A stretch of 64,000 bases of DNA from Bacilli bacterium (GCA_022653695.1 JALCSW010000002.1:436320-500319); one strand, 5' to 3'. Counted from the first letter of the stretch, positions 2,293-15,213 are shown. Translations and numbers: made by a program. The notes: generated by a model from the letters alone, not told the origin.

Positions 2293-2967
2293 ATGGCAGA
2301 GAAGACAATAGGGCAGTTCATCGCCGAGAGACGAAAGGGATTGGGCTTGCGCCAGATCGACCTTGGCAAGCGCGTCAATTACAGTGTCCAGGCCATTTCC
2401 AAAATGGAGAAAGGCCTGTCCCAGCCGGCCGGAGCCCTGGTCCCCGCCCTTTGCAACGCCCTCGATATTTCCATCGACGAGTTCTTCGCGATGGAACGGA
2501 AACCGGGCAAAAAGAACCCCGTTCCGCCTTTCGACGGCCTGACGTTCGCCGAAAACATCTCCTACCTTCGCCTGAAGGAAGGCCTGTCCCAATACGCCCT
2601 CGCCCTCATCATCAAGGTTTCGAAGCGCTCCATCGCCAACTATGAGCGGGGCGTCTCGGTCCCAAGCTGGGAAGTCGTGGACGCCTACCTAAAGCATTTC
2701 GGCCTGACTCCCGGGGCCCTCTACTTCACGACCCTCGCCCCCAAGGCCGCCGCCAAAACGAAAATCGGCGGCAAAATCGTTTGGGGCTCGATCGGGGCTT
2801 TGGCGATCGCCGCCATAATCGTCGGCGTCACTTCCCCCTTTTGGATGCGCCGGATCGAAAACGCCGCCAAAGGGGCCTATGTGGCCGACACGGCTTGCTC
2901 AAGCCAAGAAACCTCGTCTTCCTCAAGCGAGGGGTCGAGCGTCCAGGTCTCTTCCTTCGACGAGTGA
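2293..2967 (+). CDS. Membrane-tethered XRE-family regulator with two HTH domains, one TM helix and a Ser-rich tail
   Basis: ATG at 2293 (MAEKTIGQFIAERRKGLGLRQIDLGKRV...). A second HTH follows (FAENISYLRLKEGLSQYALALIIKVSKRSIANYERG), then the TM segment IVWGSIGALAIAAIIVGVTSPFW and the tail SSQETSSSSSEGSS. Confidence 0.75.
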   Translation: MAEKTIGQFIAERRKGLGLRQIDLGKRVNYSVQAISKMEKGLSQPAGALVPALCNALDISIDEFFAMERKPGKKNPVPPFDGLTFAENISYLRLKEGLSQYALALIIKVSKRSIANYERGVSVPSWEVVDAYLKHFGLTPGALYFTTLAPKAAAKTKIGGKIVWGSIGALAIAAIIVGVTSPFWMRRIENAAKGAYVADTACSSQETSSSSSEGSSVQVSSFDE

Positions 2968-3040
2968 GGGATTTCCCCAAAACCAACTCGGCCGCGCCTT
3001 GATCGCGCGGCCTTTTATTTCGTTAGCTTATCCTCTTCGC

Positions 3041-4480
3041 CTATTTTTCAGGCGGCAACGCCATGATCGAATCAAGGGAGCCGACGATCGTTTTTTCCTT
3101 CGACTCGTGCCCGTATTTGTCGACCGAAACGGCGTCTCTGACCTCGTGGGTGAGGCAGCATGGGCCGCCGATGCATCCGCCGGGACACGCCATCCCCTCC
3201 AGGAAATTGAAGGAGGCCGACCCGTTTTTCATCTGATTGAGGGCCATCCGGCAACCGTCGAGTCCGGAAGCGGCTTGGACTTTGGCCTCAAAGGAAGAGC
3301 CAAGTTCCTTCAAGCCCTCTTTTATCGCGTCGCCCAAGCCGCCGCTCCGGGCGAAAATGCGCCCGAAATAGGAGGCGTTGTCAAGCGGGGACTCCGCAAG
3401 GGAGGGCAAATCGATCCCTTTGGCGTCGATAAGGGCTTGCAGTTCCTCGAACGTGATGACGCAGTCGACATAGGAGAAACCCTTTCCGCGGGCCATCTCG
3501 TCCTTTTTGGCGATGCAGGGCCCGACGAAGACCACTTTGGCCTTGGGATCGCCTTTCTTGATGAAACGGGCGATGGCCTGCATCGGGGAGAGGCAATCGC
3601 TGACCTTCCCCTTCAACTCCGGAAAGCTTTGCTCGACGTAACGGACGAAAGCCGGGCAGCAACTGGATGTAAGCGTACCGCGCTCGGCGAGCTCCCCCGC
3701 TTCTTCGTATGCCACCATGTCGGCCCCGAGGGCCGCCTCGACGACCGCGTGGAAGCCCAGTTTCTTGATGCCGGTGATGACTTGGCCGAGGCTCGCGTAA
3801 TGGAACTGCGAGGAAACGGAAGGGGCCGCGATCATGTAGGCGTTTGCGGTTCCGCGCTCGTTTTCCTTGCTTATGTCGATGCAGTTCAGGATGAAGCTCT
3901 TGTCCATGATGGCGCCGAAGGGGCAGGCGAAACTGCACGCCCCGCACCGGGTGCATTTGCTTTCGTCGATTTCGCTGATGCCGTCCGCCCGCTCATGGAT
4001 CGCCCCCACCTTGCAGGCCGATTCGCAAGGGCGTTTGTGGTTCACGATAGCCCCGAACTGGCAGGCCTTGAGGCACAGGCCGCAATTAACGCATTTGCTC
4101 TTGTCGATATGGGCCCGCAAACGGGAATCGAAAGAGATGGCGTGCATATGGCAGGCGGAGGCGCAACGATGGGCCAAGCATCCGCGGCAGGCGTCGGTCA
4201 CTTCCATGCCGCCGATGGGACACTGATCGCAAGCCGGCTCGATGATCTCCAGCAGATTGGGGTTGCTTTTGTCGCCGCCCATGGCGAGTTTGACGCGCTC
4301 GGCGGCGATGGCCCGTTCCTTATAGATGCAGCAACGCATCGTGGGTTTGGGCCCCGGGGAGATGATTTTCGGAATATTCGGAAGGTCTTCCTGGAGGGTG
4401 CCGGCATAGTAGCTTTTCGCGACCTCCTTGAGGACGCGGTACTTAAGTTGCTGGACGGTGGTGTCGAATTTCGGTGTCAT
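3041..4480 (-). CDS. hfsD: [FeFe]-hydrogenase-like protein with ferredoxin-type 4Fe-4S domains (HfsD-like)
   Basis: All three H-cluster motifs are visible: TSSCCPAF, VGPCIAKKDE and EGMACPGGCIGGP. The N-terminal half has several CxxCxxCxxxCP clusters. Confidence 0.8.
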   Translation of the reverse strand: MTPKFDTTVQQLKYRVLKEVAKSYYAGTLQEDLPNIPKIISPGPKPTMRCCIYKERAIAAERVKLAMGGDKSNPNLLEIIEPACDQCPIGGMEVTDACRGCLAHRCASACHMHAISFDSRLRAHIDKSKCVNCGLCLKACQFGAIVNHKRPCESACKVGAIHERADGISEIDESKCTRCGACSFACPFGAIMDKSFILNCIDISKENERGTANAYMIAAPSVSSQFHYASLGQVITGIKKLGFHAVVEAALGADMVAYEEAGELAERGTLTSSCCPAFVRYVEQSFPELKGKVSDCLSPMQAIARFIKKGDPKAKVVFVGPCIAKKDEMARGKGFSYVDCVITFEELQALIDAKGIDLPSLAESPLDNASYFGRIFARSGGLGDAIKEGLKELGSSFEAKVQAASGLDGCRMALNQMKNGSASFNFLEGMACPGGCIGGPCCLTHEVRDAVSVDKYGHESKEKTIVGSLDSIMALPPEK

Positions 4481-4496
4481 GGCGGTTGCCCTCCTT

Positions 4497-5669
4497 TTAG
4501 AAATAGGCGACGCGGACGCGCTTGTCCATCGCCTTCAAGATTTTAGTCAATTCGTCGACGATCTGCATCTTCGTTGAGATGGAAATGCTGTAACGGGGGT
4601 CCTGATGGGCCGGGTTGACCGCGCACCCGACGTAGAAACTGACGTCGGTGGCCTCCTCGAAAAGCGCTTTGGCGAGAAGGGAAGCCCCGTCTTGCCGATA
4701 GACCCAATTGAAGTAATCGTCGTCCTGGGCCAAATAGTCTTTGCCGATCTCGTTGAGCCGATTGAGGGTTATGATGCCCTCCGTCACGAGATCGACGCCC
4801 TCGATGGCGCTCGTCGGGGGGATGTCCCTATCGAGATAGGTCAGCGAAGCCTTGATCGGCTTCTTGAGGTAACGCGAGACGATTTTGGCGCTCGTGCCGC
4901 CGCAAACGATGTGCCGGCCGCTCTGGGCGAAATAGGCCGCGAGGACTTTGCCGTCGTCGTCGGGGTTCGTCGGCGGACCCACGAAAACGTTGACCCGGCT
5001 GAGGGGCCGCTTCTTCACGATGAGGGCGGTCGTGTCGTCGCCCGGTTCGCCATTATAAAGGTTCATGCAGCGATCGACGAGGATTTTGGCGACGTTTTTG
5101 GCGCTGACGCTCGGAAGGGCGACCCCTTCGAGGTACCGGGCGATCTCGTTTCGGGTCCATCCGAAGTTGAGGGCTCCGCCCACCCCGGCGTAGACCGCCC
5201 CGTCGCTCACGATCGCGAGCTCGTCGCCCTCCAAAAACGGGAAAGCCGCGAAGCAAACCTTCTTCCCTTCGAGGCTCGCGCTCACCCAATCGATCTTCCG
5301 CTCTTTCTGGTTCCGCAGAAGAATCGGCTCGGGGTTGTCGTAATTGTAGATAAGGAGGCTGTCGTTTCTCGCCCGCACCAAAGTGAAGGTGCTGTACGCC
5401 ACGTTGCCGCGGTCGGTCGCCACGGGCAGCGTCCGGGTCAGGCTTTCGACCGATTCCCTTAACGAAAGGCCGCCGTCGATCATCGTCGAGAGCATCGAGG
5501 AGGTGAGGGTCGAGAGGATGTTGGCCCTGACGCCCGAGCCGAGCCCGTCCGCAAGGACGAGGAGTTGCTCGCCGTTATCCTTGCGCTTGATCTCCACGTG
5601 ATCGCCGCAAAGTTCCTCGCCGCGCTTGTTGACGGAAAGGTATCCGCTTTCGAGGACGCATTCACTCAT
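4497..5669 (-). CDS. hfsC: PP2C/SpoIIE-family serine phosphatase (HfsC-like)
   Basis: N-terminal region VNKRGEELCGDHVEIKR...LLVLADGLGSGVRANILS plus GDELAIVSDG, typical of SpoIIE/PP2C. Overlaps the upstream gene by 8 nt. Confidence 0.8.
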   Translation of the reverse strand: MSECVLESGYLSVNKRGEELCGDHVEIKRKDNGEQLLVLADGLGSGVRANILSTLTSSMLSTMIDGGLSLRESVESLTRTLPVATDRGNVAYSTFTLVRARNDSLLIYNYDNPEPILLRNQKERKIDWVSASLEGKKVCFAAFPFLEGDELAIVSDGAVYAGVGGALNFGWTRNEIARYLEGVALPSVSAKNVAKILVDRCMNLYNGEPGDDTTALIVKKRPLSRVNVFVGPPTNPDDDGKVLAAYFAQSGRHIVCGGTSAKIVSRYLKKPIKASLTYLDRDIPPTSAIEGVDLVTEGIITLNRLNEIGKDYLAQDDDYFNWVYRQDGASLLAKALFEEATDVSFYVGCAVNPAHQDPRYSISISTKMQIVDELTKILKAMDKRVRVAYF

Positions 5670-7353
5670 CGTGGCCTTTGCCTTTGTTAAGCGCCTTCTC
5701 TAAGGCCGTGAGGGCCACCTTCGTCTCGGCGGCGCTTTGCCCGAGAAGCGAGGCGATTTCCTGAACCGCCCGCATGTTCTTTTCGACGACCTCGGCCGTG
5801 ACGCGGCTCGTCTCCTGGGCGGCCGCCTCCTCTTTTTTGCGCTCCTCTTCAAGCCGCGTCACGTCGCGGAAGACCGCGATGACGATGTGGAAGTGGGGGT
5901 CGAAGGAGACCGTCGCCTCGACGTAGGCCCCGTATTGGCCAAGGTAGACTTTCCTGTTCCTGGTCGCCTCCCCGCCTAAGGCGAGGGAAAAAAGCCCACT
6001 GTCGAGATACGTGTCGATCGAGGTGCCGACAAGCCCTTTGGAATCGCCGGTCTTGACCAGGTGGGCGAACGAGGCGTTCGCGAGTTGGATCCTCAACTTT
6101 TCGTCGGTCACGACGATCGCGTTGTCGCTGCCTTCGACGATGTTGTTCGAAAAACTCCTGGCCTTGTCCATGAGATAGGGCAGGCACATCTCAAGCGAGG
6201 CTTTGCCCTTGATGACGGCGATGGCTTTGTCGCGGCAGGTCGCATAGCCGCAGCTGGAGCAATTGAGCTCGTCCTTTTTTTCGGTTTTGCCGATTTGGGC
6301 CAAGACCTTCCTTATCTCCTTTTCGCTCGGCTCAAGCGAAGTGACGCTGAAGGCCGGAAGGCGCTTGCTGAGCTCCGCGGGGGCATAGGAGCGGACCGGG
6401 AAATCCTCGCGCCCGGCCGAACGGCGGATCTCGAGGTTGCTCTCAACTGGGCGATGGGGGGAGGAAAGGGCTGGCCCGTTGATGCAACTGCCCCCGCATG
6501 AGGACATCTCCAGGAAGGCGTGATGGATTTTGCCCGAAAGGATGTCCTTAAGCGCGGCGATGCAATTTTCCATCCCGGAGACGGACAGATACGCGAAATC
6601 GGGGTTGTCCCGCTTCATCGTGAGGAGGATCCCGTCGTCGATCGGGAAGAGCCGGGCCCGGCTCTTCTCTTCCTTTTCCGAGTCTTTTTTGGCGGGCCCC
6701 ACGACGATCCCCTTCTTTTCCAAAAGATTTCTCAGCTCGATGAAAGTCAGCACGCAGTCGACGTAATCGGGATACATCTCGATTTCGCCCTTCTTGCTGA
6801 TGCATGGTCCTAGGAAAACGACCTTGGCGCCGGGATGGCGCCGCTTGATGTCCTGCCCGTGGGCCAGCATCGGCGAAAGGACCGGGGCCAGGTATTTGGC
6901 GGCGTCCGGATAATGCTTCTCCACGAGCAGATTCAGCGAATGGCAGCAGGTTGAGATGACGATGTCGTGCTTTCCGTCGTCGCAGAGGTCGTCGTATTGC
7001 TTTTTGACGATCGTGGCCCCGATGGCCGTCTCTTCGGCGTCGCGGAAGCCGAGTTTCCGTAGAGCCTCCCTGACCGAGGCGAAATCGCAGCCCGGGAAGG
7101 CCGCGAGGAAGGAAGGGGCCACCGAGGCGATGGCGTGCCCCGTGGCGATGAGATCCAAAGCTTTCGAGGTGTCGTCGCGGATGACTTTGCAGGATTGGGG
7201 GCAGGCGAGATAGCACGCCCCGCACATGACGCATTCCCCGGCGATGATCGAGGCTTGGCCGTTGCGGAAGGAAATGCTTTTGGTCGGGCAGACGCGGATG
7301 CACTTGTAGCAGCTGCGGCAGTCGTTCTCCCGGCTCGTGAGGGCCGTGCTCAT
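5662..7353 (-). CDS. hfsB: Sensory (group C, HydS-type) [FeFe]-hydrogenase-like protein with C-terminal PAS domain and coiled-coil tail (HfsB-like)
   Basis: N-terminal 2x 4Fe-4S motifs (CRSCYKCIRVCP, CVMCGACYLACP). H-cluster-like motifs are STCCHS, GPCISKKGE and EMSSCGGSCINGP. These are followed by a CSSCGYATC motif, a PAS-like region (NAIVVTDEKLRIQLANASFAHLV...) and a charged helical tail. Confidence 0.8.
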   Translation of the reverse strand: MSTALTSRENDCRSCYKCIRVCPTKSISFRNGQASIIAGECVMCGACYLACPQSCKVIRDDTSKALDLIATGHAIASVAPSFLAAFPGCDFASVREALRKLGFRDAEETAIGATIVKKQYDDLCDDGKHDIVISTCCHSLNLLVEKHYPDAAKYLAPVLSPMLAHGQDIKRRHPGAKVVFLGPCISKKGEIEMYPDYVDCVLTFIELRNLLEKKGIVVGPAKKDSEKEEKSRARLFPIDDGILLTMKRDNPDFAYLSVSGMENCIAALKDILSGKIHHAFLEMSSCGGSCINGPALSSPHRPVESNLEIRRSAGREDFPVRSYAPAELSKRLPAFSVTSLEPSEKEIRKVLAQIGKTEKKDELNCSSCGYATCRDKAIAVIKGKASLEMCLPYLMDKARSFSNNIVEGSDNAIVVTDEKLRIQLANASFAHLVKTGDSKGLVGTSIDTYLDSGLFSLALGGEATRNRKVYLGQYGAYVEATVSFDPHFHIVIAVFRDVTRLEEERKKEEAAAQETSRVTAEVVEKNMRAVQEIASLLGQSAAETKVALTALEKALNKGKGHDE

Positions 7354-7354
7354 C

Positions 7355-7609
7355 TTAGGCCTCCACGAGGGGGAGGACCTCCGAGGCGAAAACGGAAGGC
7401 AGGTTATCCTTCGTGACGCCGGTGATGATTTTGTCGTTGACCTGGATGGTGACGCCGTCGAAGGCGCATTTGCCTAAGCAAAACGCGGCCTTGAGTTCGA
7501 CCTTCTTCTCCAGATGGCGGTCCGCGACCTCTTTGCGGAACCCTTCGATGACGTCGAAGGATCCCTTGAGGTGACACGAACTGCCGACGCAGATGCTGAC
7601 ATTGACCAT
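7355..7609 (-). CDS. hfsA: Thioredoxin-like [2Fe-2S] ferredoxin (NuoE/HfsA-like)
   Basis: 84 aa with CVGSSCHLKG ... CLGKC cysteine spacing. The ATG at 7607-7609 lies 3 nt downstream of the adhE stop codon. Confidence 0.7.
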   Translation of the reverse strand: MVNVSICVGSSCHLKGSFDVIEGFRKEVADRHLEKKVELKAAFCLGKCAFDGVTIQVNDKIITGVTKDNLPSVFASEVLPLVEA

Positions 7610-7612
7610 AGG

Positions 7613-10243
7613 TTAATTCCCCTTATAGGCTTTTTTGAGGATCCCCTCCATGTCGACGACGAGCGGGACCCGCGGGTTGGCCGGGGTGCACTGGTCCTCA
7701 TAGGCGAGGTAGGAGATCTTTTCGAGGTTATTATCCCATAGTTTCTCGTCGGGGACGAGACTTTGGAAATTCATGTCGATGCCGACTTCCTTGCCGAGGG
7801 CCATGACGGCGTCGGCGAGGACCCCGGCCGCTTCCGTTTTGCTCTTGGCCCCCAAACCGAGAACGTTGCAGATTTCGAGGTATTTTTCGTCGCATTGGTA
7901 TTCCTCGTATTTCGGCCAAACGCTGAGTTTGGTCGGGGCCGTTCCGTTGTAGCGGATGACGTGGGGAAGGAGGATGGCGCAGGTTTGCCCGTGGATGAAA
8001 TGGTATTCGGCGCCGAGCTTATGGGCCAAGCTGTGGCAGAGGCCGAGGAAGGCGTTGGCGAAAGCCATGCCGGCGATCGTCGCCGCGTTATGCATCTTCT
8101 CCCGGGCCTTGAGGTCATGCTTGCCGTCTTTGACGGCGCGCGGCAGATAGGCGAAGACGAGTTTGATCGCCTCGAGCGCGAGGCCGTCGGTGTAGTCGCT
8201 CGCCATGACGGAGGTGTAGGCCTCGATGGCGTGGGTGAGGACGTCCATGCCGGTATAGGCGGTCGACTTGGCGGGCAAATTAGTCGTGAATTCCGGATCG
8301 ACTATGGCGATCGAAGGGGTGAGCGAATAGTCGGTCAGCGGGTATTTTTTGCCATGGGCCTTGTCGCTGATGACGGCGAAAGGCGAGACCTCGCTGCCGG
8401 TCCCGGACGTCGTCGGGATGCAGATGAGCTTGCTCTTGCGGCCAAGTTCCGGGTATTTGAAAGCGCGTTTGCGGATGTCCATGAACTTCTCTTTGAGGTC
8501 GTCGAAATTGACTTCGGGGTGCTCGTAGAAGATCCACATCGCCTTCGCGGCGTCCATCGAGGAGCCGCCGCCGAGGGCGATGATGGTGTCGGGCTTGAAC
8601 GCGTCCATGAGCTCGACGCCGCGCCGAACGGTCGTGATGTCGGGATCCGGTTCGACCTCCGCGAAGAGCTGATAAGTCACGGGGTTGCGACGGAGGTTCA
8701 GCTCATCGATGATTTTGTTGAGAAACCCCAACTCCACCATCGAATGGTCGGTGACGATGAAAACCTTGCCGACCTCCTTGCACGAACGGAGGTATTGGAT
8801 GCTGTTGCGTTCGAAATAGATCTTCTGCGGAACCTTGAACCACTGCATGGTGTTTCTCCTTTTGCCGACTTTCTTGATGTTGAGCAGGTTGACGGCGCTC
8901 ACGTTGCCGCCGACGGAGTTGCGGCCATAGGAGCCGCAGCCCAACGTGAGCGAAGGCAGGAACGAATTGTACACGTTTCCGATTCCGCCGAAAGTGGACG
9001 GGGAATTCCAAATAACGCGAAGGGCTTTGACCTTGTCCCCGTAGGCGTCGGCCATCGCCTGCTCCTTGCAATGGATCGCGGCGCTATGGCCCAAACCGCC
9101 GAACTCCAGCATCCGCTCAGCCATGGCGAAGCCCTCTTCCGGCCCCTTGACCTTGTAGAAGCCCAGCACCGGGGACAGTTTTTCGCGGGAAAGCGGCTCC
9201 TCGGGCCCGACGTCCTTGAGCTCCACCGCGATGATCGCGGTCCTCTCGGGAACGGCGAAACCGCTTTTCTCGGCGATCCAGGCGGGCGACATCCCGGCCA
9301 CGTCGGGGTTGAGCCGCGCCGATTCGACGCCTTTTTCCCCACGGGAGTAACCGAACATGAATTTCTCGAGTTTGGCCTTTTCCTCCTTCGAGGCGAAATA
9401 GACGTGGAAACGGGCGAACTTCTCTTTCATGGGGACGTATATCGCCTCGTCGACGAAGACGGCCGACTCGCTGGCGCAGATCATGCCGTTGTCGAAATTC
9501 TTCGAAAGGACGACGTCGTTGACGGTTTGGTCCTGATCGCACGAGGCGTTGATGTAGCACGGGACGTTGCCGGCGCCGACGCCCAACGCCGGTTTGCCGC
9601 AACTATAGGCGGCCTTGACCATGGAGTTGCCTCCCGTGGCGAGGATGGTGGCGACTCCGGGGTGCTGCATGAGCGCGGTCGTGGCGTCCATCGAAGGGTG
9701 CTCGATCCATTGGATGCAGTTCTCGGGCGCCCCGGCCGCGACGGCGGCATCGCGCATGACGATGGCGGCGGCCTTCGAGCATTCCTGGGCTTTCGGATGG
9801 AAGGCGAAGATGATGGGGTTCCTCGTCTTCAATGAGATAAGCGATTTGAAAATGACGGTCGAAGTCGGGTTCGTGACCGGGGTGATGCCGGCGATGACGC
9901 CGACGGGTTCGGCGATTTCGGTGATGCCGGTGACCGGGTTCTCGGAGATGATGCCCACGGTCTTGAGGTGGCGCATGTTGTTCACGACGTATTCGCAGGC
10001 GAAAAGGTTCTTCGTCGCTTTGTCCTCAAAGACGCCGCGATGGGTCTCCTCGATGGCCTTGCGGGCCAAGAAACCGTGCTTGTCGAGCCCGGCTACGGAC
10101 ATTTTGGCGACGATGTAATCGATCTGCTCCTGATTGAAGGACGCGAATCGGTCAAGGGCCGTCAGCCCTTTCTTGACCAACTCATCCACTTCCGCTTTCG
10201 CGGCCGCGGCCCCGTCGACGGCCGCTTCGTTTTTTTCGCTCAT
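7613..10243 (-). CDS. adhE: Bifunctional acetaldehyde-CoA/alcohol dehydrogenase
   Basis: 876 aa from the ATG at 10241-10243, preceded by AAGGAGAG. It has an N-terminal aldehyde dehydrogenase part and a C-terminal iron-type ADH part (GGGSSMDAAK, histidine-rich metal site region). The track ORF begins 13 codons further upstream without an RBS. Confidence 0.95.
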   Translation of the reverse strand: MSEKNEAAVDGAAAAKAEVDELVKKGLTALDRFASFNQEQIDYIVAKMSVAGLDKHGFLARKAIEETHRGVFEDKATKNLFACEYVVNNMRHLKTVGIISENPVTGITEIAEPVGVIAGITPVTNPTSTVIFKSLISLKTRNPIIFAFHPKAQECSKAAAIVMRDAAVAAGAPENCIQWIEHPSMDATTALMQHPGVATILATGGNSMVKAAYSCGKPALGVGAGNVPCYINASCDQDQTVNDVVLSKNFDNGMICASESAVFVDEAIYVPMKEKFARFHVYFASKEEKAKLEKFMFGYSRGEKGVESARLNPDVAGMSPAWIAEKSGFAVPERTAIIAVELKDVGPEEPLSREKLSPVLGFYKVKGPEEGFAMAERMLEFGGLGHSAAIHCKEQAMADAYGDKVKALRVIWNSPSTFGGIGNVYNSFLPSLTLGCGSYGRNSVGGNVSAVNLLNIKKVGKRRNTMQWFKVPQKIYFERNSIQYLRSCKEVGKVFIVTDHSMVELGFLNKIIDELNLRRNPVTYQLFAEVEPDPDITTVRRGVELMDAFKPDTIIALGGGSSMDAAKAMWIFYEHPEVNFDDLKEKFMDIRKRAFKYPELGRKSKLICIPTTSGTGSEVSPFAVISDKAHGKKYPLTDYSLTPSIAIVDPEFTTNLPAKSTAYTGMDVLTHAIEAYTSVMASDYTDGLALEAIKLVFAYLPRAVKDGKHDLKAREKMHNAATIAGMAFANAFLGLCHSLAHKLGAEYHFIHGQTCAILLPHVIRYNGTAPTKLSVWPKYEEYQCDEKYLEICNVLGLGAKSKTEAAGVLADAVMALGKEVGIDMNFQSLVPDEKLWDNNLEKISYLAYEDQCTPANPRVPLVVDMEGILKKAYKGN

Positions 10244-10258
10244 ATTTCTCTCCTTGTT

Positions 10259-10427
10259 TATCGGTATTCTTTTACCGGACACATTCTATGAACCCCGATC
10301 GATAAAATCAATAGGTTTCAGTACAGTTTTACCGATATGAAATATAATGCCGATGAATCCTGACTATATATCAGTACAATTACCGATAAGTTTATTGAAA
10401 GCGTTTCCATGAAAACCGGTATATCGG
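10259..10427. promoter_or_regulatory. Cluster of TACCGATA-type repeats in the adhE / MFS divergent control region
   Basis: Direct repeats are TCAGTACAGTTTTACCGATA (10318-10337) and TCAGTACAATTACCGATA (10371-10388). An inverted copy TATCGGTA sits at 10259-10266, and a related ACCGGTATATCGGC at 10414-10427. Confidence 0.5.
10283..10311 (-). promoter_or_regulatory. Candidate sigma-70 promoter of adhE
   Basis: On the minus strand: TTGATT (10306-10311), 17-nt spacer, TAGAAT (10283-10288), about 40 nt upstream of the adhE ATG. Confidence 0.4.
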
Positions 10428-10547
10428 CAGAAAATCCGCCCAGGCGTTCCGGCTCCCGAAAAAAAGCTCGTAACCTCAGTCGCCTCCGATTTCGCCTTTC
10501 AAAGGTTTCCGGCGGGTCGTAGACTGATTGAAAAGAGGAATAACCTT

Positions 10548-12023
10548 ATGGGCACTTCCGAAAAGAAAGAACGGCGGCGTTTGGCCGCGGAAGCCAGAAG
10601 AAGGAAACGCGAGGAAGATAAGGAAGGGCACCGCCTTCGGAGCGAGGCCCGCGAAATGGGGCGGCTGGAGAAAGAGAAGGCCCGGCCCAAAGGAAAAGGA
10701 TACTTATGGTACCTTATCTTTTTCCTTTGCCTCGTTTACATCGTCGATGAGGTGGCCACCGGGCTCCATAACGGCATCGTGAACGAAGCCGTTTCCTCCT
10801 TTTTCATCACGAGTTCCGACCCCCGTCTCGCAAGCGAGGAGACCTCGAACGGCTTAGGCACTTTCAGCACCATGGAAATGGTCGCCAACATTTTGTTGGT
10901 CATCGGTTTCTTCTACAAGGCCTTGGCCGACCGCTTCGGCCGCAAGCCGTTCCTCATTGCCAACACGATCGGCATGGTCGGAGGCTTGCTTCTATGCCTA
11001 TGGGGACCCAACCTCGCGGTTTATATCCTCGGTTTTTGCGTCATCCGTTTCTTCGTGACGCCCGACGAGCAGATCGTCTATATCTTCGAGTCGGCCCCGA
11101 AGGAAAAGCGCGGCTCCATCTATAGCGGCGTCAAAGGCGTCGCCGAGCTCGGGCTTCTTCTGATCCCGCTTGGCCGTTACCTCTTCATCGACTCGCTCGG
11201 GAACGGCTGGAGGATGGTCTTCCTGATCCCGGCCTGCATAGGCGCCGCCGTCAGTTTCTTCCTTTGCTTCTTCGCCCGCGAAACCGATCCTTTCATCGAA
11301 TCGCGCCTGAGGTTCCTCAAGCTCTCGCCCGCGGAACGCCTGGCGATCGCCAAAGAGAAAAAGGACCAGTCGAGAAAGCAGGGCGGCTTCTTCGCCGCGG
11401 TCAGGTACGGCTGGGGCGGCAAGCAACTCCGCTGGATTTTCATCGTCACGATCCTTTTCACTTTGTCGCGGTGGATCACGAGCGAGTACTCGCCTATCCT
11501 CGACGCCGCTGGATTCACCGGCGCCCAAACGACGAACGCCCTCTTCATGTATCCGATCACGGCGGCCCTTATCGTTTTCGCCTATGGCTTCCTCAGCGAC
11601 AAAGTCGGGCGCAAAATCACGTCCATAACCCTTTTGGCGATCACCATCGTCTCGCTCAGCCTGTTCGTTCTGGGGGCTTACCTCCGGTGGAACGAATTCG
11701 CCCTCGGCTTGCTCATAGGCCTCTTCTTGGGGGCATACTGGAGCAACGGCGACACGCTCATCCTCATGACCGGCGAAAGCGCCCCGACGAACCTGCGCGC
11801 CTCCATCATGTCGGCTCAAACGATGTTCTATGGCATCGGCATGGTCGTGAGCCAAGGCTTGGGATCCATCGCCCTCAAGGTTTTCAAGATGCCGGCGTCC
11901 TATATCGGCCTCTTCTCGATTTGCCTCGCCATCCCTTGCTTCGTCCTTTCCCTCGTCTTCCTTATGGGCAAAGTCAAGGAAACGAAAGGCGCCGACGTCG
12001 ACAAGGCGGTCACGCAGGAATAG
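10548..12023 (+). CDS. MFS transporter with a ~50-aa highly charged N-terminal extension
   Basis: AAGAGGA RBS upstream. About 12 hydrophobic segments and an MFS loop motif (LADRFGRKP). The N-terminus reads MGTSEKKERRRLAAEARRRKREEDKEGHRLRSEAREMGRLEKEKARPKGKG. Confidence 0.85.
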   Translation: MGTSEKKERRRLAAEARRRKREEDKEGHRLRSEAREMGRLEKEKARPKGKGYLWYLIFFLCLVYIVDEVATGLHNGIVNEAVSSFFITSSDPRLASEETSNGLGTFSTMEMVANILLVIGFFYKALADRFGRKPFLIANTIGMVGGLLLCLWGPNLAVYILGFCVIRFFVTPDEQIVYIFESAPKEKRGSIYSGVKGVAELGLLLIPLGRYLFIDSLGNGWRMVFLIPACIGAAVSFFLCFFARETDPFIESRLRFLKLSPAERLAIAKEKKDQSRKQGGFFAAVRYGWGGKQLRWIFIVTILFTLSRWITSEYSPILDAAGFTGAQTTNALFMYPITAALIVFAYGFLSDKVGRKITSITLLAITIVSLSLFVLGAYLRWNEFALGLLIGLFLGAYWSNGDTLILMTGESAPTNLRASIMSAQTMFYGIGMVVSQGLGSIALKVFKMPASYIGLFSICLAIPCFVLSLVFLMGKVKETKGADVDKAVTQE

Positions 12024-14963: not shown

Positions 14964-15213
14964 ATAGTTGACCTCATTGCTAAGTTTACGCTATGTAAGC
15001 GCTTCCGTGAAGATATGAAGAAACAAATACCGGTTTATCGCATCTTTTGAAAGGGCGGCGTATAAAATGGAATCGTCAGCCAAACGATCGGACCGGACCG
15101 TTTTCCGTTAAGAAAGATGGCTAGACGGCCGCGGCTCGCCCCACTTCGCTCTTTTTTCAAAGGGCAAAGAAGCGCAAAATGTTAAGTCCGTTATTTCCTG
15201 GCGAGGTGGCATC

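Follow-up and report, generated by a model that had tools for sequence, protein, structure and literature searches.

What does a gene for ethanol fermentation do at the head of a cluster of hydrogenase and phosphatase genes? The question is raised by a stretch of DNA of 64,000 nucleotides (nt) from a Bacilli bacterium (GCA_022653695.1, JALCSW010000002.1:436320-500319), hereafter the window, in which adhE, encoding a bifunctional acetaldehyde-CoA/alcohol dehydrogenase, directly precedes four genes that resemble the hfsABCD module. A first-pass annotation of the window had proposed that the five genes are cotranscribed, and that a presumed sensor of H2 or redox state is thereby coupled to the operon of its metabolic target. 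We consider, with a probability of about 0.72, that this five-gene operon corresponds, among small-genome Bacilli, to the Ruminococcus albus 7 cluster, joining two outlets for reductant with a sensor made of HydS and HfsC. The genes are consecutive open reading frames (ORFs) on the minus strand between positions 3041 and 10243, and are followed by a predicted terminator:

7613..10243, minus strand: adhE, bifunctional acetaldehyde-CoA/alcohol dehydrogenase, 876 residues (NF010378 with Pfam Aldedh and Fe-ADH)
7355..7609, minus strand: hfsA-like gene for a thioredoxin-like [2Fe-2S] protein, 84 residues (PF01257, 33.7 bits)
5662..7353, minus strand: hydS/hfsB-like gene for a putative sensory [FeFe] hydrogenase, 563 residues (Pfam and orthology to R. 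albus HydS)
4497..5669, minus strand: hfsC-like gene for a PP2C phosphatase of the SpoIIE/RsbU type, 390 residues (PF07228)
3041..4480, minus strand: hfsD/hydA2-like gene for a predicted monomeric ferredoxin-dependent [FeFe] hydrogenase of group B type, 479 residues (TIGR04105)
2990..3012, minus strand: intrinsic terminator hairpin at the operon end, bidirectional (8 GC pairs and a T-rich tail, folding z = -3.2)

All the coordinates and gaps of the first-pass annotation were reproduced: from adhE to hfsD, successive genes are 3 nt apart, 1 nt apart, overlapping by 8 nt and 16 nt apart. The longest adhE frame (7613-10282) opens at a GTG at 10282, and translation probably begins at the ATG at 10243, which is preceded by a AAGGAGAG ribosome-binding site (RBS). 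At its other end the frame reads ...AAG GGG AAT TAA and is followed by CCT ATG, the Shine-Dalgarno (SD) sequence AAGGGG of the hfsA-like gene thus lying within the adhE coding end; folding of this junction is nothing unusual when compared with shuffled sequence (z = -0.07). When positions 2300-10700 were scanned for consensus promoters, the sole match was TTGATT-17-TAGAAT at 10311..10283, and none was found inside the operon. A similar scan of the minus strand over 3041-10243 found no terminator-like hairpin between the genes, in keeping with what had been claimed, while the strong hairpin listed above (3012..2990) stands 30 nt past the last stop. These features argue for a single operon, adhE-hfsA-hydS(hfsB)-hfsC-hfsD, whose genes would be transcribed together.

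The proteins are those that had been named at first sight. AdhE scores 1349.7 bits against NF010378 (cut-off 951) and has both the aldehyde dehydrogenase and the iron alcohol dehydrogenase halves of the fused enzyme, and Pfam agrees that the next four genes encode a 2Fe-2S protein, a hydrogenase with a PAS domain, a SpoIIE/PP2C phosphatase and a second hydrogenase. The first of the two hydrogenase-like proteins consists of an N-terminal 2x[4Fe-4S] domain, an H-domain (PF02906, 146.9 bits), a Cx2Cx4Cx16C cluster, a PAS domain and a C-terminal helical hairpin. In all of 30 orthologs its H-cluster cysteines C137, C184, C286 and C290 are kept, and so is the motif that follows the H-domain, C365-x2-C368-x4-C373-x16-C390, which is exact and coincides with a PF04060 match. 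When aligned by eye, the HydS-like motifs STCCHS, GPCISKK and EMSSCGGSC carry the replacements M353->G and M497->S, as in Thermotoga maritima HydS. The PAS domain of the window protein falls below the Pfam cut-off (16.4 bits, E = 0.009); PF00989 is found in 28 of the 30 orthologs with a best E of 6e-8, and an AlphaFold model (mean predicted local distance difference test, pLDDT, 84) shows a five-stranded PAS-like sheet at residues 412-497 followed by helices at 499-559. The proton-transfer cysteine (C299 of CpI) has not been lost, motif 1 having both cysteines; the pair is also present in R. albus HydS (SSCCHS), and one relative has STACPS, so that the feature varies within the HydS-PP2C clade. 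T. maritima HydS is said to be the subject of a study by Chongdar in 2018. We found no solved structure close to either hydrogenase of the operon, and none for T. maritima HydS or the window HydS. The Cx2Cx4Cx16C motif and the replacement of M353/M497 were defined for group C HydS in PMC8163306, and Greening et al. 2019 place R. albus HydS in group C (PMC6776011). Together with 44% identity to the R. albus protein, these hallmarks (the cysteine motif, the PAS domain, M353->G and M497->S) point to a putative sensory [FeFe] hydrogenase belonging to group C, as the first-pass annotation had it. The helical hairpin at residues 499-559 (window 5662-5860) is among the most conserved stretches of HydS (MRxVQEIASLLGExxAETKxAL).

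HfsD is of another kind. It scores 528.2 bits against TIGR04105 (monomeric FeFe_hydrog_B1, cut-off 450) and only 166.5 bits against the group A model, whose cut-off is 406, and its motifs read TSSCCPAF, FVGPCIAKKDE and EGMACPGGCIGGP; the six-residue TSSCCP and the F-x-G-P-C pair resemble CpIII (PMC12138974). By profile score and motifs HfsD is a predicted catalytic hydrogenase of group B type, and the outcome against which the first-pass annotation had guarded, both hydrogenases in catalytic group A, is not what TIGR04105 returns. This assignment conflicts with that of Greening et al. 2019, who class the R. albus HydA2 ortholog as group A1 (PMC6776011). In two relatives hfsD is surrounded by long open frames, for which an hfsC-hfsD fusion was considered and then rejected, since the genes are in different frames. 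Elsewhere in the window's own genome (G000, C1:311432-315624), there is a third hydrogenase with the arrangement HydC(NuoE-like)-HydB(NuoF-like)-HydA, which looks bifurcating and completes an R. albus-like trio.

The annotated order on plasmid pRUMAL01 of R. albus 7 is rex, adhE, a 'phosphotransferase' of 249 residues (APH/RIO-like), two 2Fe-2S proteins, an [FeFe] hydrogenase of 558 residues (HydS), a SpoIIE phosphatase of 389 residues and a 4Fe-4S protein, which is HydA2. Over their full length, the window proteins share with those of R. albus 7 the 44% identity already given for HydS, 47% for the PP2C phosphatase, 59% for HydA2 and 45% for the second 2Fe-2S protein. Zheng et al. in 2014 reportedly dealt with this cluster at an earlier date. 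It was described as a putative eight-gene cluster, co-transcribed and 111-fold lower when an H2 consumer is present, with a possible feedback loop (Greening et al. 2019, PMC6776011). R. albus HydS, phosphatase and HydA2 have been equated in turn with HfsB, HfsC and HfsD of Thermoanaerobacterium saccharolyticum (PMC5707799, PMC11837493), in which adhE transcripts rise two- to threefold once hfsA or hfsB is deleted (Eminoglu et al. 2017, PMC5707799). The likeness to the hfs cluster put forward in the first-pass annotation is therefore real in both gene content and order, which match hfsABCD and the HydS-PP2C-HydA2 module, and the statement that hfsB lesions shift fermentation toward ethanol is borne out by the literature, the hfsB deletion raising ethanol (PMC5707799). 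Both the layout and the feedback idea have thus already been published for R. albus 7; the window holds a minimal, kinase-free version that extends their range to small-genome Bacilli.

The adjacency of adhE and the hfs genes, whose recurrence had been in question, is widespread. Of 40 relatives of the order (G001-G040), 13 have both a HydS ortholog and adhE. In 11 of these 13, nine belonging to the same genus and two to other families, the module comes directly after adhE, with a tight adhE/module junction of 5-14 nt in all relatives. A wider survey, with one genome per species, gave 80 HydS loci, 62 of which had enough upstream sequence to be decidable; adhE stood directly upstream in the same orientation at 30 of the 62, and rex preceded adhE in 17 of those 30. 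Their hosts are Oscillospiraceae, Christensenellaceae, Lachnospiraceae, other Clostridia and several metagenome-assembled genomes (MAGs) of Bacilli or Anaeroplasmatales. The commonest arrangements are rex-adhE-kin-A-A-B-C-D and A-A-B-C-D, and the kinase-free rex-adhE-A-B-C-D is typical of the window's clade. Because the same order occurs in 11 relatives of the order and in 30 of the 80 more distant HydS loci, it is not due to chance. The hfsABCD module behaves as an optional cassette, or add-on, behind adhE, because rex-adhE pairs also occur with no downstream hfs genes (L017 in G011 and L020 in G028, with L032 in G019 undecided at a contig end). At one locus of a close relative (L031:2353-4982, G010:C1), adhE is read in two overlapping frames covering residues 4-233 and 202-876, a frameshift or assembly error in a MAG that is 54% complete.

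Upstream of adhE, the following elements were recognized:

10396..10409, minus strand: TGGAAACGCTTTCA, a cre-like box and candidate CcpA site that lies upstream of the promoter (read from the sequence)
10371..10388, minus strand: third, degenerate operator repeat with a perfect left half TCGGTAA and a right half shifted by 2 nt (direct repeats; position weight matrix, PWM, below 12 bits)
10318..10335, minus strand: distal operator box TCGGTAAAACTGTACTGA, just upstream of the -35 (PWM 19.1 bits; aligns with the distal box of relatives)
10283..10311, minus strand: sigma-70-like promoter TTGATT-17-TAGAAT (consensus scan; position relative to the boxes kept in 7 relatives)
10261..10278, minus strand: proximal operator box CCGGTAAAAGAATACCGA, a 7-4-7 palindrome between the -10 and the RBS (PWM 23.6 bits)

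The PWM was trained on the boxes of 14 relatives and scanned over the 1.29-Mb genome. The proximal and distal boxes gave the top two scores genome-wide, the maxima in shuffled genomes being 16.7-18.6 bits. When the 100 nt before the first start codon were aligned between the window and 7 relatives, the distal box, the -35, the -10, the proximal box TCGGTAA-N4-TTACCGA and the RBS were found in common, and in 14 relatives the same proximal box is found after the -10 and before the start codon of rex. The first gene after this conserved block is rex in the relatives and adhE in the window. Indeed, a Rex-family gene is found 28-120 nt upstream of adhE in all 9 module-bearing relatives of the genus and in the 2 of other families, while the upstream neighbour of the window adhE is not rex but a divergent MFS transporter gene. 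The genome's sole Rex homolog lies on another contig (G000 C3:17234-17872); it is 64-66% identical to the operon rex of the relatives and ranks them in the same order as HydS does. In this genome, rex has left the operon while the promoter and the operator boxes stayed behind and now adjoin adhE.

The canonical Rex operator, TTGTGAA/TTGTTAA-N4-TTCACAA/TTAACAA (TTGTKAA-N4-TTMACAA), had no match with up to 3 mismatches in 10244-10547, so that the operon is not a member of the canonical Rex regulon. The wing of the operon-linked Rex proteins reads VS/C-x-x-G(K/R)P(K/R)xG where solved Rex proteins carry FGxxGxxGxGY, and rex at clostridial loci is preceded by similar ATCGATAA/TCAGTAA palindromes alongside canonical TGTTAA-N4-TTAACA boxes. 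From the sequences, we infer that the 7-4-7 boxes may be the site of an operon-linked Rex subfamily, which, having an operator of its own, would offer a testable transcriptional output for the system. A search for a wider regulon with the same PWM found only the adhE promoter above the shuffled controls; a site with 3 mismatches upstream of hydABC and an ACCGGT element at window position 15028 were both dropped as boxes, each scoring below 12 bits. The candidate cre box at 10396..10409 suggests catabolite control of the operon, and its GGAAACGCTTTCA element recurs upstream of rex in two relatives (L026 and L027).

The features given above (which genes these are, how they are spaced and bounded, their orthology, their conserved adjacency and boxes, and their intact catalytic motifs) allow a working scheme to be drawn, in which we infer what protein binds the boxes, by what path the signal travels and with what sign. 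The operon would package two routes for reducing equivalents when H2 accumulates, to ethanol through AdhE and from ferredoxin to H2 through HfsD, together with a sensor, HydS and the PP2C phosphatase HfsC, that travels with both. A single transcript would begin at the promoter (10283-10311) and end at the terminator (2990-3012), and the relocated Rex-like protein would repress it at the two boxes and leave them when NADH/NAD+ rises. HydS would read H2 or redox state at its H-cluster, and its C-terminal [4Fe-4S] cluster, then its PAS domain and then its helical hairpin, the likely contact surface for the phosphatase, would relay the signal to HfsC, which might then dephosphorylate a target phosphoprotein that tunes the expression or activity of AdhE and HfsD.

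Several observations weigh against this scheme. The boxes are non-canonical and co-occur with canonical Rex boxes in Clostridia, which leaves the identity of the protein that binds them uncertain. The kinase of the R. albus type is absent from the operon and has no tblastn match (E < 0.01) in the window's own genome, which is 79% complete, a figure that bounds all our negatives on signalling partners. In the same genome there is no match to STAS (PF01740) or to an RsbW-type ATPase (PF13581), so that neither the substrate nor the kinase of RsbU/RsbV/RsbW-type switching was found. The sign also differs between the known systems, with induction at high H2 in R. albus (PMC6776011) and higher adhE in the hfsB deletion of T. 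saccharolyticum (PMC5707799). Finally, the maturases HydE, HydF and HydG were found in none of 41 genomes of the order, and an H-cluster in HydS and HfsD is thus not assured.

The partner of HfsC that the first-pass annotation had looked to the genome to supply, whether a STAS-type or anti-sigma antagonist or a kinase, did not come to light there, and classical partner switching is unlikely here. HfsC, the only SpoIIE-type PP2C in the genome, has a PP2C domain (1-222) followed by an uncharacterised alpha/beta C-terminal domain (225-390). The metal-binding Asp motifs of PP2C are invariant in 28 orthologs, and the best fold matches of its model (pLDDT 87) are 3pu9, SpoIIE and RsbU, with RsbX also among them, the PP2C half having dominated the fold search. 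The C-terminal domain belongs to no Pfam family and has only one weak match in the PDB, SIS-like (3trj, E = 0.018); it could bind a ligand or a partner. Residues 225-390 (window 4497-5000) are strongly conserved, with a mean column identity of 77%. Two APH-family ORFs elsewhere on the contig were rejected as equivalents of the R. albus kinase, being of different size and with no BLAST homology to it. A motif search of the genome gave a single Hanks-type Ser/Thr kinase-like ORF (HRDIKPDN...DFG), at C2:344569-345648, near a gene that we take to be RlmN-like from our own reading of its motifs. On that motif evidence it is a candidate for the kinase that would oppose HfsC.

The lack of maturases extends to the whole order as sampled, that is, to the window's own genome and its 40 relatives; of these 41, 27 are at least 90% complete and some are in 3-10 contigs. 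The search responded correctly on its controls, Bacteroides thetaiotaomicron and T. maritima. The seven radical-SAM-type ORFs of the window's genome belong to other families (RlmN-like, HemW, MiaB/RimO-like or SPASM peptide maturases), names that we presume partly from our own reading of the motifs, and nothing maturase-like neighbours hydABC in that genome. Of the 41 genomes, 30 nevertheless carry 1-3 intact H-domain genes, and the H-cluster motifs of HfsD and HydS (TSSCCP, FxGPCxxKKxE and ExMxCxxGC types) are fixed while overall identity drops to 45-58%. Active [FeFe] hydrogenases have been described in archaea and some protists that have no maturases, and an alternative pathway proposed (PMC11216029). 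Izemoplasma, another lineage of Bacilli, has hydEFG (PMC8397711), and RF39/RFN20 have been called hydrogen producers with maturases unmentioned (PMC7301438). As a tentative proposal, to which we give somewhat less than an even chance, the order may build the H-cluster by a HydEFG-independent route, or take the cofactor from outside, while keeping up to three [FeFe] hydrogenases. We found no proposal of HydEFG-independent maturation for a bacterial lineage in the literature searched. In our judgement, these maturase-free hydrogenases, in an order of small-genome gut or digester Bacilli, are the most interesting observation of this study, and they give the question of hydrogenase maturation without HydEFG a setting among bacteria. 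Owing to the same gap, the claim that HydS senses H2 here is weaker.

That gap is also what gives substance to the view that HydS and HfsD, real and co-expressed as they may be, carry only Fe-S clusters, the module then sensing the ferredoxin or redox pool or shuttling electrons with no role for H2. The absence of HydE, HydF and HydG from all 41 genomes, in a search with sound controls and with the radical-SAM ORFs of the window's genome all assigned to other families, speaks for this view; however, the residues of the [2Fe] subcluster are strictly kept in the three motifs against the fall in overall identity, a bifurcating-type HydABC has been kept too, and archaea and some eukaryotes make active [FeFe] hydrogenases with no maturases (PMC11216029). 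We regard it as unlikely. Another reading takes HfsABCD as one multisubunit catalytic hydrogenase, the sense in which it was first named in T. saccharolyticum; its PP2C-like and HydS-like subunits would then serve structure or electron transfer and have no part in signalling. Removing the entire hfs operon does lower hydrogenase activity and H2 in T. saccharolyticum (PMC5707799), but deletion of hfsB alone raises hydrogenase activity and ethanol (PMC5707799), and expression of hfsD alone is enough for the phenotype (PMC11837493). The metal-binding Asp residues of the PP2C domain are invariant, the PAS domain and the altered H-cluster pocket fit a sensory class of low activity, and we find this explanation scarcely tenable.

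A different objection is that adhE and the hfs genes are neighbours that are separately expressed, owing to a promoter inside the cluster, to processing of the RNA or to incomplete termination, in which case their adjacency would mean shared regulation at most. AdhE is usually required in far greater amount than a sensor, weak or non-sigma-70 promoters may escape consensus scans, and the rex-adhE pairs of L017 and L020 do without hfs genes. Against these stand the 3-nt gap with the next SD inside the adhE end, a junction with no hairpin (z = -0.07) and no internal promoter or terminator match, its constant tightness of 5-14 nt across the relatives, and the fact that the whole R. albus cluster changes together (PMC6776011). 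Separate expression thus appears very unlikely, and we retain the single operon that joins both reductant outlets to the HydS-HfsC sensor. Of the coupling first proposed between an H2 or redox sensor and the adhE operon, the physical linkage stands, strengthened by its conserved adjacency; it is not new (PMC6776011), and its H2-sensing part stays putative in an order that lacks HydEFG.

The linkage of adhE to a putative H2 sensor supports the idea that fermenters switch between acetate plus H2 and ethanol by sensing H2 directly, a switch with consequences for interspecies hydrogen transfer, for methane from the rumen and for the engineering of ethanol production. The layout itself may matter less than the maturase-free background and the Rex subfamily specific to this operon.

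Among known systems, the R. albus 7 cluster is the nearest. It shares with the window the order adhE ... 2Fe-2S - hydS - PP2C - hydA2, down to the 8-nt overlap of hydS and the phosphatase gene, and a trio of hydrogenases, of which one is of a bifurcating HydABC type, one uses ferredoxin only and one is sensory. Unlike it, the window has no APH/RIO-like kinase gene, one 2Fe-2S gene instead of two and its rex on another contig; its AdhE is only 45% identical, and the host belongs to the small-genome Bacilli, not the Clostridia, and has no HydEFG. The hfsABCD operon of T. saccharolyticum, with which a 2009 paper by Shaw is said to have dealt earlier, differs from the window in that adhE lies at a separate locus, these being presumably Tsac_0416 for adhE and Tsac_1550-1553 for hfs. 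Both have the same four-gene module in an operon that lacks a kinase, and in T. saccharolyticum the module is genetically tied to adhE expression and to the yield of ethanol (PMC5707799), the equivalence passing through the published correspondence of HfsB, HfsC and HfsD to the R. albus proteins, with HfsA matched by position only. T. maritima HydS (group C, M2f; PMC8163306) resembles the window protein in its 2x[4Fe-4S] domain, H-domain with M353->G/M497->S, Cx2Cx4Cx16C cluster and PAS domain, whereas the window protein keeps the Cys-Cys of motif 1 and is linked to a PP2C phosphatase rather than a histidine kinase. As in the Rex control of adhE and hydrogenase genes in Firmicutes, the operon of the relatives is headed by a Rex-family gene and 7-4-7 palindromes flank the promoter, but the boxes of the window's clade are TCGGTAA-N4-TTACCGA instead of TTGTKAA-N4-TTMACAA and the Rex wing is altered. 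The HoxBC-HoxJ-HoxA system of Cupriavidus necator is alike in principle, a low-activity hydrogenase, a PAS-type domain and a phosphorylation step setting the expression of H2 genes (PMC5707799), although the proteins are unrelated, being [NiFe] rather than [FeFe], and a histidine kinase and response regulator take the place of the PP2C phosphatase.

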